Below are positions 9,904 through 12,799 of a stretch of DNA of 64,000 nucleotides, one piece after another; position 1 is the first letter of the stretch, and each line of letters begins with the position of its first letter. Both the position numbers and the translations under genes were made by a program. Below the pieces are notes generated by a model. It saw nothing but the letters and a program-made list of their open reading frames with translations, searched no databases and was not told the origin of the DNA. The stretch covers positions 32,001 to 96,000 of the forward strand of contig JBHLMN010000008.1 in the NCBI GenBank assembly GCA_048938105.1, in the 5' to 3' direction. The DNA comes from Promethearchaeota archaeon (GTDB taxonomy: Archaea; Asgardarchaeota; Heimdallarchaeia; Hodarchaeales; Hodarchaeaceae).

Positions 9904-10269
9904 ATGGACACAAATCTGAAAAGAGGCGTTGAACTGATCAAACAGGTCGATAATTCAACTGCAATAGTATTTCTACTTAAAGCATTAAAAAAAGATCCGT
10001 CAAATCCAGAAATTTTCCGTCATCTTGGTTTAGCTTATTTTAATCTAGGTAACTTCGATGAAGCTCTCCTACACTGGAAAAAAGCAATCGAGCTAGACCC
10101 AACTCACCATCAAACAATATGGTCCTTAGGTAATCTACATGAGATAGAACACAGATATGATGAAGCTTACCAATGTTATAGCCAAGCAGCAGAAATTGCG
10201 AAACAGGGGTCATATCCCAAGAAAGCTGAACGTTATAGAGAGTGGGCAGCTAGGATTAAGAGGAAGTAA
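9904..10269 (+). CDS. Tetratricopeptide repeat protein
   Basis: LGLAYFNLGNFDEALLHWKKAIELDP-type TPR repeats. Confidence 0.85.
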   Translation: MDTNLKRGVELIKQVDNSTAIVFLLKALKKDPSNPEIFRHLGLAYFNLGNFDEALLHWKKAIELDPTHHQTIWSLGNLHEIEHRYDEAYQCYSQAAEIAKQGSYPKKAERYREWAARIKRK

Positions 10270-10362
10270 GAGCGAAAACACCAAATAAAACACTTTTTTG
10301 TATGAGGATAAGCATTTTTTGTTTAATATTCTGTCGAAGAGTTTTTTTCCCTAACAAATAAA

Positions 10363-10370
10363 TTTATAAA
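10363..10370 (+). promoter_or_regulatory. Putative TATA box (TTTATAAA, A-rich upstream) for the RIO kinase leader transcript
   Basis: Canonical archaeal TATA about 340 bp upstream of the RIO start codon. Confidence 0.45.
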
Positions 10371-10419
10371 CAAAAGACAAAAGATTGGAATCATCAATGG
10401 AACGAGGTGTTTCTTGCAG

Positions 10420-10700
10420 TGAGATATGAAAATAAAATAATGAGAAATCTTGTTTTAAGTAAAAGCGAGCAAACACCAGTTATTGTCGCTTAAGTCAATA
10501 ACTTTCATAACTCCTTTTGTTTTCGCTTCTTCTTTAACAAGCAGTCTCTTCTGAGTTATTGTGTTGTTTTACAGAGATTACTTGTTAGCTCAAGTTAGTT
10601 AATGAGTGGTCTCTGATATACGTAGTGGGCACTCTCAAAGTCATTATTGCTCAGTGGGCGCTCTAAATAATTCAGGATTCTCATCTCAAGAATAATCTCA
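10420..10700 (+). ncRNA. Candidate structured 5' leader or ncRNA with uORF upstream of the RIO kinase
   Basis: Nested complementary segments: 10440-10452/10673-10684, 10463-10473/10516-10528, 10478-10485/10496-10503, 10535-10549/10573-10587, 10604-10608/10630-10634. Confidence 0.5.
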
Positions 10701-10712
10701 ATTGATAGAAAG

Positions 10713-11690
10713 ATGAAATGGAAGATATCAAATTTGAGTACAGACCGTAATCAAAGACTTGGATTTGGAAGATTTGGAAAAACTGCCCATGGTAGAGAAG
10801 AATCCTATCAGAGTCGAAGGATTAAAACCAAACACCAATTAAAAGAGATTACTATTACTGAAGCTAAGAATCAGCTCTTAGCTACTGGTGAAATTCGTAA
10901 AATACTTTCAGTAATTGGTGGTGGTAAAGAGGCAACAGTCCTTCTTGCTGAAAATAATGAGGAAGAATTAGTATGTGCGAAGGTATTCCGATATTTCACG
11001 AGTACCATAAGAAAACGTCTTCATGGGACTAAACATCTTCTTCCAAGTGATATGGCGATTTTAGCTGCAAAACAGGAATATTGGAATTTATATGAAATGA
11101 ACCTTCATATTCCGGTACCTAAACCACGATTACTTGTCGATAATGTTGTTATCATGGATTTCATTGCTGAAGAGAGAGGATCAATTAGACCAGCCCCGCT
11201 TCTTAGAGAAGTTGATCTAAAGATGTATGATCCTGAAGAGCTTTTCCATGAATCTATTGATATACTTGCTAACTTATTTTTGAAAGGTTATTTCATTCAT
11301 GGAGATTATAGTGAGCATAACTTAATGTTTACACAGGAAGGTACTCTTATCACAATGGACGTTTCTCAATCAGTTCAATTTAACACTAAGACTTTTATAA
11401 ATACCCCTTTGAGAATTAGAATTGACAGGGCCGTTGAATTCCTCAAAATTGATATAGAAAATATTAATCGCTTTTTCAGGAGAACCTACCATATAGCTAT
11501 TGATCCTAGTGAAGTAATCGAAGCCATCATTAATGAATTACCCCAGAATTTACAAAATTTCTTAAATGAAAAGACTTTGGAAATTTATCCTTCTGCTATG
11601 TATTCTTCTGAAATGTATTTAGGGAAAGAAGGATATCGGGATGAGTTAGTATTTCAAAGGACAGGTACAAGTCGTCAACGACCAAAATAG
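10713..11690 (+). CDS. RIO1-family atypical Ser/Thr kinase/ATPase
   Basis: IGGGKEATV, AKVFR, VPKP, IHGDYSEHNL, MDVSQSV, DIENINRFF. Confidence 0.9.
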   Translation: MKWKISNLSTDRNQRLGFGRFGKTAHGREESYQSRRIKTKHQLKEITITEAKNQLLATGEIRKILSVIGGGKEATVLLAENNEEELVCAKVFRYFTSTIRKRLHGTKHLLPSDMAILAAKQEYWNLYEMNLHIPVPKPRLLVDNVVIMDFIAEERGSIRPAPLLREVDLKMYDPEELFHESIDILANLFLKGYFIHGDYSEHNLMFTQEGTLITMDVSQSVQFNTKTFINTPLRIRIDRAVEFLKIDIENINRFFRRTYHIAIDPSEVIEAIINELPQNLQNFLNEKTLEIYPSAMYSSEMYLGKEGYRDELVFQRTGTSRQRPK

Positions 11691-11968
11691 CAATATTGAG
11701 AAAGAATCGGTGAACATAAGTATTGAAATTTCATGAGAAAGGGGTTGAAAAATTAGAGGAAACAGATAGCTATATTTCTAACCAGATTTCTATTATTTTT
11801 AATTTGAAAAGGAAAAATATTTTATCTGATCAACCACACATTGAACCTTTAAGTAGAATAGAAGAGAATGAAATGAACATGTACATCGTTAAGGCTCAGG
11901 AAATTGTGACAAAGTGGAATGAGGGATTGGAAAACGATTAGTACAAAGAATAGGAGAAGAAGAAGAGA

Positions 11969-12799
11969 ATGAAATTCAATAAAATTGACGAACACCTTAT
12001 TTGGACGGATGTTGGTTATGGAAATAGTGTAGTAATAGACCTAGGAAAAAAAGTGTTTGTGATAGATTCTATGTTTAACTGGGAGTTAGCAACAGAATGG
12101 CGAAGCCTTGTTGAACAAAATTTTTGTAAACCCATATCAGGATTGATACTTACACATCATCATGCTGATCATACCTTTGGAAACCAAGTATTTTCGGATT
12201 TACCTATCATTTCAAGTCTTGAAATTCGAGATATGACAAAGGAATTTGAAGAAGAAGTGTGGATGAAAGAAACACAAGAGGATCTTGCTGAATGGGAAGC
12301 AGGGGGATATGGTGTAAAAAACCTACAGCTCACACATTCAAATCTCTGTTTTGAGAAAAAGCTTTATTTGTATGGAGAAAGAAAATTGGAGCTTATTCAA
12401 GCCAATGGTCACACTAGTGGTAGTACTTATTTATGGGAACCTGAAACTAGGACGCTAATTGCTGGTGATTTGGTTTTCAACAAACAATTTCCTTATGGGG
12501 GAGATGAAACATGTGATATAGTAGTATGGCAAAAGGTTATTGAGAATCTAATTGCTCTAGAACCAGAAATTATCATCAGTGGTCATGGGCCAGTCGCGAC
12601 TATCAAGGATCTTGAAGAAATTAATGAGTTTTTCTTGAGGAGTATTGATTTTATAAAAAATAAGCTAGAGGAAGGATTAGATTTACAAGAAATTACGGAG
12701 GATCCACATTTTCCCGAATACTATTCTCTTGATCGTCTTGAAAGGAAAAAAGTATCAATTGAAAGATGGATGCAGTTTTTTCAAGAAGAGAAAGGATAG
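11969..12799 (+). CDS. MBL-fold metallo-hydrolase
   Basis: THHHADHTFGN, GHTSG, AGDL, SGHG. Confidence 0.9.
   Translation: MKFNKIDEHLIWTDVGYGNSVVIDLGKKVFVIDSMFNWELATEWRSLVEQNFCKPISGLILTHHHADHTFGNQVFSDLPIISSLEIRDMTKEFEEEVWMKETQEDLAEWEAGGYGVKNLQLTHSNLCFEKKLYLYGERKLELIQANGHTSGSTYLWEPETRTLIAGDLVFNKQFPYGGDETCDIVVWQKVIENLIALEPEIIISGHGPVATIKDLEEINEFFLRSIDFIKNKLEEGLDLQEITEDPHFPEYYSLDRLERKKVSIERWMQFFQEEKG

Follow-up and report, generated by a model that had tools for sequence, protein, structure and literature searches.

Switches built on short open reading frames (ORFs) in the leaders of messenger RNAs (mRNAs), known as leader ORFs or upstream ORFs (uORFs), are classic in bacteria and eukaryotes. A full-text literature search found no leader-ORF attenuator described for Archaea among the papers listed, and none of the papers listed connects RIO kinases with uORFs, leader peptides, attenuators or riboswitches. 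We analysed a 64,000-nucleotide (nt) stretch of DNA ("the window") from a genome, called G000 here, of the Heimdallarchaeia, the archaeal group closest to eukaryotes. In it a gap at 10270–10712 lies between a small TPR gene (9904–10269) and a RIO-domain kinase gene (10713–11690), both on the + strand. With a probability that we put at about 0.6, the sequence from 10390 to 10712 is the 5′ leader of the mRNA of this extra, RIO1-like kinase, transcribed from a TATA box at 10363 and acting in cis as a translation-coupled switch that carries a 24-codon uORF (the "mini-ORF") behind a Shine-Dalgarno (SD) sequence. The leader is probably an undescribed, archaeal and RIO-linked variant of the leader-ORF RNA switches, tying kinase expression to translation, and it is a comparatively well-supported candidate.

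How does this locus compare with the described systems? By analogy, the leader would seem closest in logic to the erm/cat attenuators and to translational coupling by RNA unfolding, without being a member of either family. As in the erm and cat attenuators (ermCL-ermC, cat86, cmlA), a short SD-led leader ORF of about 20–30 codons stands ahead of the regulated gene and a segment of that ORF belongs to helices that exclude one another, so that a ribosome there re-partitions the downstream pairings; this feature of the erm/cat type, a segment within the mini-ORF (R2, below) that is shared by alternative helices, was found here. Unlike those systems, the host is archaeal and the downstream gene codes for a RIO-type kinase in place of a resistance protein, the SD of the leader ORF is masked by its own coding region (helix P1, below), an arrangement not found in erm and cat leaders, support for a masked downstream start is only moderate, the distance from mini-ORF to gene is 220–550 nt, and the peptide is not conserved. 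A conserved drug-responsive arrest peptide of the erm/cat kind was not found, the peptides being unrelated and a conserved motif shifting frame among them. This lack of peptide conservation makes an arrest specific to drug and peptide unlikely.

In translational coupling by RNA unfolding (MS2 coat/replicase and coat/lysis; rpmI-rplT), translation upstream opens a long-range helix near the downstream start, which is also what the present leader resembles, and such coupling with long-range masks has been reviewed (PMC12548453). The partner strand here is, in contrast, the SD and start segment of the upstream ORF and not its coding body, and the upstream ORF is a 24-codon mini-gene without a conserved product. 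Transcription attenuation and polarity (trpL, pyrBI; toiL with Rho) share with this locus a leader ORF with a hairpin and a U-rich tract behind it, and a long untranslated leader that would be exposed to a termination factor unless a ribosome trails the polymerase; the uORF toiL gives ribosome-dependent control with Rho (PMC12121999), and FttA is the likely archaeal polarity factor (PMC12548453). Unlike trpL, hisL and pyrBI, the mini-ORF has no regulatory codon runs, and leaders of the window's clade lack runs of five or more T (in four of six; below). Finally, the mRNAs of type I toxins (hok, tisB, aapA) also contain a small ORF, and anti-SD segments occlude its SD in a succession of helices that exchange during transcription. 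They differ from the present case, where the peptides lack both conservation and hydrophobicity, no antisense partner is evident, the fold of the minus strand is poorer, and the element is strictly linked to the downstream kinase gene.

The mini-ORF, its Shine-Dalgarno sequence and helix P1

We compared all RIO orthologues of the genus, 14 metagenome loci and five extra RIO paralogs from other Heimdallarchaeia families; the window's clade is clade A, clades C and D were also compared, and loci other than G000 carry G0xx or L0xx labels. Five genomes of the same genus can be aligned with the window at 69–78% over the promoter and the entire gap, from about 10343 into the RIO gene, with the TATA region, GAGGTG and two blocks in and after the small ORF invariant; a close relative is the 'Candidatus Heimdallarchaeota archaeon' chromosome CP070760.1. 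The + strand of 10395–10712 folds at −89.8 kcal/mol (z = −4.77; none of 100 dinucleotide shuffles folds as well), and the minus strand of the same interval has z = −2.18. Rfam 15 gave no match at its gathering score in the whole window and three noise hits (E > 1) in 10200–10800, and the element is single-copy in its own genome and not a repeat family. The initial annotation, which was made from the sequence of the window, had taken the gap for a structured leader of about 300 nt without signatures of signal recognition particle RNA, RNase P RNA or transfer RNA; these results bear it out, in that the gap is a conserved, structured leader and not spacer DNA. The features at the 5′ end of the leader, and the gene presumed to be regulated, are as follows:

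10355–10370, + strand: archaeal promoter, an A-rich stretch like a B recognition element plus the TATA box TTTATAAA (10363–10370), in columns conserved among homologues
10397–10418, + strand: R1, the 5′ switch strand, comprising the SD GAGGTG (10404–10409) and the spacer to the mini-ORF start, marked by the invariance of GAGGT
10419–10493, + strand: mini-ORF (uORF) of 24 codons, GTG start at 10419 and TAA stop at 10491–10493, an open frame in orthologous loci
10465–10477, + strand: R2, the anti-SD core GCGAG-C-AAACACC in the mini-ORF, four codons before its stop, which pairs with R1
10713–11690, + strand: divergent RIO1-like kinase gene, the presumed regulated gene (Pfam RIO1, E = 5.6e-25)

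The promoter columns AAATA.ATTTATAAA show no variation in six close homologues, and a TATA-like box stands 38–43 nt 5′ of the SD in 13 of 24 loci from diverged clades. The usual archaeal spacing from TATA box to start is about 25 nt, so the 5′ end of the RNA should lie a few nt before R1, and the transcription start in the window would fall at about 10390–10396. A single GAGGTG followed by an ORF of 21–27 codons is present in 15 of 15 genus orthologues and in 12 of 12 metagenome loci that include upstream DNA, and in every orthologous locus examined an ORF of 21–28 codons begins 9–12 nt past the SD, with ATG as its start codon in most relatives. The initial annotation had read a TATA box at 10363, the GAGGTG and the frame from GTG 10419 to TAA 10493 in this one sequence; all three are present as it read them, the TATA region is invariant in the close homologues, and the uORF with its SD is conserved as an open frame at every orthologous locus examined.

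The mini-ORF is thus a constant feature of these loci, but is it the peptide or the RNA that is kept? Over 313 codons from 13 clade representatives, frame +1 has 41 stops, frame +2 has 29 and frame 0, which was selected for being open, has none. The other frames carry about 0.11 stops per codon, and at that density 21 codons would stay open by chance in about 8% of independent lineages. The peptides (in G000, MRYENKIMRNLVLSKSEQTPVIVA) are unrelated across clades and variable, with charged residues throughout, and the clade comparison found no amino acid or codon run common to them and no conserved hydrophobic toxin peptide. A conserved block, GARCARACACC, lies four codons ahead of the stop and is in another reading frame in G020 and in G016/G001, and the stop stays 12–15 nt 3′ of the anti-SD even where the frame differs. 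Unrelated peptides and a motif that shifts frame point to constraint on the RNA itself and on its being translated, with none on the peptide, and a conserved micro-protein was rejected for these same reasons.

GAGGT is invariant in all 25 aligned loci, and its flanks vary and covary. It is complementary to the 3′ end of G000's own 16S ribosomal RNA (rRNA), GGAUCACCUCCU (this 16S end is also given as CACCUCCU), and a fixed GAGGT between covarying flanks fits an unchanging partner, the 16S 3′ end. In the genome as a whole, SD-like motifs are 4–20 fold enriched at −16 to −6 ahead of long ORFs.

The core of the putative switch is helix P1, in which the SD pairs with the anti-SD inside the mini-ORF: GGUGUUU (10406–10412) with AAACACC (10471–10477), and CUUGC (10413–10417) with GCGAG (10465–10469). 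The duplex has −18.4 kcal/mol, within the top 0.27% of random genomic 36-mers. Across clades the cognate SD and anti-SD segments average −15.4 kcal/mol against −11.0 ± 0.7 kcal/mol when partners are deranged between clades (0 of 5000 as low). The P1 flanks covary between clades as GGUGUUUGU / ACAAACACC and AGGUGUAA / UUACACCU, and further clade pairs are CAGGAG / CUCCUG, CCGAGGU / ACCUCGG, GGUGCUUUU / CAAAGCAUC and GGUGUCAUAG / CUAUGAUACC. In a model-fitted alignment of 24 loci, which leans towards its own structure, eight pairs of P1, and 28 cells, show changes on both sides, with a covariation score of 0.255 against 0.156 (0 of 500 shuffles) and 68.8% pairing against 62.1% in shuffles, with slid registers at 33–56%. 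In the MAFFT alignment pairing is 67% against 62% (0 of 500); a global MAFFT alignment of all leaders was unusable past the mini-ORF. The SD has an unpaired probability in the ensemble of 0.00–0.33, against a leader mean of about 0.40. P1, the SD:anti-SD helix in the uORF, was absent from the stems that the initial annotation had listed, and it is P1, not those stems, that forms the core of the putative switch.

Helices H1 and P0 and the central domain

The remaining elements of the leader, in the order in which they are transcribed, are as follows:

10449–10541, + strand: H1, a long imperfect hairpin in which the 3′ half of the mini-ORF, with R2, serves as the 5′ arm (RNAalifold, five homologues)
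10478–10485 / 10496–10503, + strand: apical 8-bp stem of H1, AGTTATTG / CAATAACT, with the stop codon in its loop, read from the sequence
10515–10523 (TTTTGTTTT) and 10536–10541 (AACAAG), + strand: R3, the U-rich 3′ arm of H1
10548–10657, + strand: central domain, H2 (10548–10556 / 10649–10657) around the 18–19 bp hairpin H3 (about 10571–10614), from the minimum free energy (MFE) fold and RNAalifold
10624–10664, + strand: two anti-SD-like copies of AGTGG(N)3CTCT (10624–10635 and 10653–10664), candidate partners of R1 by motif recurrence
10679–10699, + strand: R5, the 3′ strand of closing helix P0, ending 13 nt before the RIO ATG (MFE fold and relatives)

The perfect apical stem with the stop in its loop is exactly as first drawn, and the mini-ORF stop lies at or near the H1 apex in all clades. 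R2 and R3 are cognate-specific partners, with a mean of −24.7 kcal/mol against −16.2 ± 0.8 kcal/mol for deranged pairs (0 of 5000). Because P1 and H1 use the same nucleotides of R2 they are mutually exclusive, two cognate-specific helices that overlap the uORF and compete for R2.

R5 is complementary to R1 and to the first codons of the mini-ORF. In the MFE fold, helix P0 pairs GAGGU (10404–10408) with AUCUC (10695–10699), UUCUUG (10411–10416) with CAAGAA (10687–10692) and GUGAGA (10419–10424) with UCUCAU (10679–10684). R1 and the RIO start region give −11.0 kcal/mol as cognates against −8.75 ± 0.54 kcal/mol when deranged (0 of 5000), and stronger P0 duplexes of different sequence occur in relatives: −17.9 kcal/mol in G009 (AAUGGAAAGAGGUGU / ACACCAUUUUUCCAUU), −19.1 in G014, −21.7 in L076 and −14 to −18 in clade D, where the RIO SD is included. 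In 11 of 11 clade A and D loci R1 pairs best or second best with the RIO-proximal stretch (best in nine), and in several long-leader clades the best partner lies elsewhere. P0 is in sum a moderately supported helix, its support coming from the relatives. Closing helices such as the initial annotation had drawn do exist, with a register in the MFE fold that differs from the one it gave, and the SD segment has a complement near the RIO start in clades A, C and D. For clade D, RNAalifold suggested a long-range helix whose sequence does not vary, so that covariation cannot be used to judge it, and a conserved GGUGA...UCACC helix stands beside the RIO SD there (CCAGGAGGT).

The central domain H2/H3 is moderately supported in clade A, with a few two-sided changes, modest covariation and, in three species, 20 nt inserted at the tip of H3, and it is poorly conserved beyond that clade. 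A 15-bp stem at 10535–10549 / 10573–10587, to which the initial annotation had pointed, is in the sequence and finds no comparative support in five close homologues, where 65% of its cells are paired, 393 of 500 shuffles score as high and 8 of 15 pairs are broken. The motif AG(Y)GGA(N)1-3CUC recurs in most clades. Pairing between R1 and AGYGGANNCUC was rejected as a general feature, its cognate-specific signal not being significant across clades. In folds of nascent lengths of the G000 leader the SD is paired at each stage, its partner being R2 in transcripts to 10480 and 10510, the first AGTGGGCACTCT motif (R1 with 10622–10636) in the transcript to 10665, and R5 in the full leader.

The RIO-like kinase and its linkage to the leader

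G000 has four RIO-domain genes, two of which score 178 and 153 bits against Pfam RIO1, and the gene in the window scores 87.6 bits. Its protein is far under the NCBIfam cut-offs, and its nearest solved structures are Rio1 (E about 1e-16). Orthologues of 58–78% identity are found in 14 of 20 other genomes of the genus, a fifteenth being a C-terminal fragment at a contig end, and the best matches outside the genus are about 30–35% identical. The columns GGGKEA, HGDxSEHN and MDVSQS are invariant in 12 orthologues, and the nucleotide-binding and catalytic motifs appear intact. The low RIO1 score and the genus-limited orthologues mark the gene as a divergent extra RIO paralog; judged by its sequence it is a third RIO kinase, restricted to the lineage, and not the canonical Rio1 or Rio2 of small-subunit maturation. 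The functional rationale that the initial annotation drew from small-subunit maturation is weaker for that reason. The conserved N-terminus begins at S(T)DHNQRLGF, within 10713–10745, with preceding residues that differ in length, and the true start in G000 may be the TTG at 10734 (MSTD...) instead of the ATG at 10713. The nucleotides AAUGGAAG around 10717–10724 are kept in relatives, even where they are read in another frame.

The combination of a strong SD, a mini-ORF with an internal anti-SD and a mini-ORF start 250–630 nt before a non-canonical RIO paralog, at one copy per genome, was found across the genus and metagenome loci, in a comparison of 24 orthologous loci. In the other Heimdallarchaeia families, the five extra RIO paralogs carry a like module (GAGGTG in four, GGAGG in one) with an ORF of 23–28 codons and, in four of the five, self-pairing of −14 to −23 kcal/mol, and the other RIO hits in those genomes, canonical genes included, are without the self-pairing module. 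Searched with a covariance model of the element, 14 of the 21 genus genomes gave a single strong match each, which in every case lay at the RIO locus; at phylum scale this model is too specific, since it missed loci visible by eye, and its hits are no estimate of distribution. The gene upstream differs by clade (a TPR gene, a gene of no family, a metallo-beta-lactamase gene or CinA), and because these neighbours differ while the module stays, the linkage is to the kinase.

Working model, alternatives and neighbouring elements

The switch that we favour would work as follows: P1 would form first during transcription and hide the mini-ORF SD; synthesis of R3 would then move R2 into the more stable H1 and leave R1 transiently free; a ribosome loading on R1 would read through R2, open H1 and stop at the H1 apex; and R1, when occupied by the ribosome, could not close P0 with R5. 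Because a ribosome on the mini-ORF must break P1, H1 and P0 and occupies R1, both the fold and the expression of the kinase should follow the rate of initiation or the dwell time of the ribosome. The earlier proposal that ribosome transit of the uORF remodels the leader is kept to this extent, that the fold would have to change (with P0 complementarity in clades A, C and D), and is altered in that the core helix is P1. The output could be translational, through access to the kinase start, or transcriptional, through read-through of the U-rich R3 or through shielding of an otherwise untranslated leader from polarity of the FttA/aCPSF1 type. From the sequences we infer that the mini-ORF is translated and shares its transcript with the kinase gene; control could run in either direction, turning the kinase on or off. 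U-rich tracts follow the stop in the leaders that were read, and in G000 the tract (TTTTGTTTT) is inside the 3′ arm of H1, 12 nt past the apical stem; termination in Archaea follows other rules than in bacteria, and to our knowledge hairpin-dependent intrinsic termination has not been established in Archaea.

P1, H1 and P0 are defined targets for compensatory mutations. If the kinase is controlled in this way, synthesis of the extra RIO paralogs of Asgard archaea appears to be tied to the loading or stalling of ribosomes, and such a tie would point to work in translation or ribosome surveillance, and away from routine small-subunit maturation. The element would also be a test case for the use of SD-led initiation and of transcription-translation coupling for regulation in this lineage.

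Several findings weigh against the model. SD-led initiation serves a minority of the genes in this genome, and in a Lokiarchaeote it is reported not to be prevalent (PMC7531240). Taken alone, P0 of G000 ranks no higher than the top 6% among 2231 genomic start regions. Strong masking of the RIO start codon is not seen in clade A, where the unpaired probability of RIO positions −15 to +6 is 0.28–0.62, an average value and not an especially masked one. R3 was tried as a mask of the RIO start and rejected as a general feature (−16.96 kcal/mol for cognates against −16.73 for deranged pairs), and L077 and L082 do pair strongly in this way. In clades C (L046/L047) and D (L048–L052), and in L079 and L081, a conserved ATTTTTAAAT box stands about 110–165 nt before RIO and looks like a second archaeal promoter; in the long-leader clades T5–T7 runs that look like a terminator occur at about +65 to +85 past the mini-ORF stop; and in clade D an SD of its own precedes RIO. 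The mini-ORF unit of all these clades and loci may terminate conditionally or be a separate transcript.

These last findings, the conserved TATA box of the element itself, the U-tract inside the 3′ arm of H1 and the complementarity of R1 to the RIO start, which would work equally well in trans, are all accommodated by a rather unlikely alternative, one form of which (an independent non-coding RNA) the initial annotation had raised, in which the 10363 promoter makes an independent small gene with an RNA of about 130–270 nt ending in the U-rich region, and RIO has a promoter of its own. The product would be a micro-peptide, or a dual-function small RNA whose 5′ SD segment pairs in trans with the start region of the RIO mRNA. 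A functional micro-protein is, however, improbable given an unconserved peptide and a motif that shifts frame, and clade A fits a separate gene poorly. Its leaders are short (219–239 nt after the mini-ORF stop), four of the six have no run of five or more T between mini-ORF and RIO, T6–T7 runs follow the upstream gene, and the alignment of homologues shows no conserved TATA box and no SD ahead of RIO, all of which, with the position of the 5′ TATA box, favours a single leader-plus-kinase transcript in this clade. Conserved structure moreover reaches to within 13 nt of the RIO ATG, and the one-to-one linkage to the RIO paralog outlasts the changes of upstream neighbour.

It is decidedly unlikely that the leader works mainly by binding a protein or ligand, with H2/H3, the AGYGGANNCUC motifs and the chain of anti-SD-like segments recognised by a factor and the mini-ORF secondary. 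The candidates for that factor would be a ribosomal protein, a small molecule or the RIO-like kinase, which would autoregulate by way of a leader that mimics the 16S 3′ end or an SD:anti-SD helix. The recurrence of AG(Y)GGA(N)1-3CUC in most clades despite its lack of cognate-specific pairing with R1 would be explained, and RIO kinases do act near the 3′ end of small-subunit rRNA while leaders of ribosomal protein genes commonly mimic rRNA sites. The resemblance of several segments to the 16S 3′ end CACCUCC is nevertheless expected of any anti-SD, Rfam offers no matching aptamer or leader, conservation of the central domain is poor in other clades than A, and an invariant SD, a fixed start and a maintained open frame would be left unexplained. 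To the view that the gap is a functionless AT-rich spacer whose hairpins and short ORF arose by chance we give almost no credence: single helices of G000 can be matched by chance, as the rank of P0 shows, and the 15-bp stem is unsupported, yet the z-score of the fold, nucleotide conservation from the promoter onward, recurrence of the module in every orthologous locus and in other families, and significant covariation of P1 and H1 all speak for function. A more far-reaching version of the favoured switch, which we consider quite unlikely, would make it an ancient sensor of ribosome status for extra RIO kinases across Asgard archaea, perhaps convergent in bacteria, in which the SD is passed along an anti-SD chain (R2, AGYGGANNCUC, R5) that mimics the 16S 3′ end or an SD:anti-SD helix and is read by free 30S subunits or by the kinase. 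If that were true, the extra RIO paralogs would be translation-surveillance kinases and the leader the first leader-ORF riboregulator known in Archaea.

Some further observations concern the surroundings of the leader and its relatives. In the window, three T6–T7 runs at 10283–10350 come straight after the stop of the TPR gene and ahead of the leader's TATA box; they form a typical archaeal oligo-T terminator region, which makes the leader a transcription unit apart from the TPR gene. On the other side, a 72-codon ORF without a Pfam match (11723–11941) begins 33 nt past the stop of the kinase gene, and a gene of the metallo-beta-lactamase fold (11969–12799) is next. In clade D (L048–L052) the TATA box lies about 95 nt before the SD, and at 20–95 nt 5′ of the mini-ORF SD there is a conserved hairpin followed by a T-run (e.g., GAGACGAUUUUUCCGUCUUGUUU), which is absent in the window's clade. 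The ATTTTTAAAT box sits 45–50 nt after the AG(Y)GGA(N)1-3CUC motif, which could also be an operator at the DNA level.

Finally, a weak match of the covariance model (E about 1e-3 to 1e-4) was found at L103:1501–1593 on the minus strand, in a genome of another Heimdallarchaeia family (G039). There a GAGGTG leads a 22-codon ORF in which codons 15–18 (GAACUAACACUU) form a complement to the ORF's own SD and spacer (AGGUGUUAGUU). What follows, about 130 nt downstream, is a GNAT acetyltransferase gene and not a RIO kinase gene; judging from this element, leaders with a self-masked mini-ORF may not be restricted to RIO genes.

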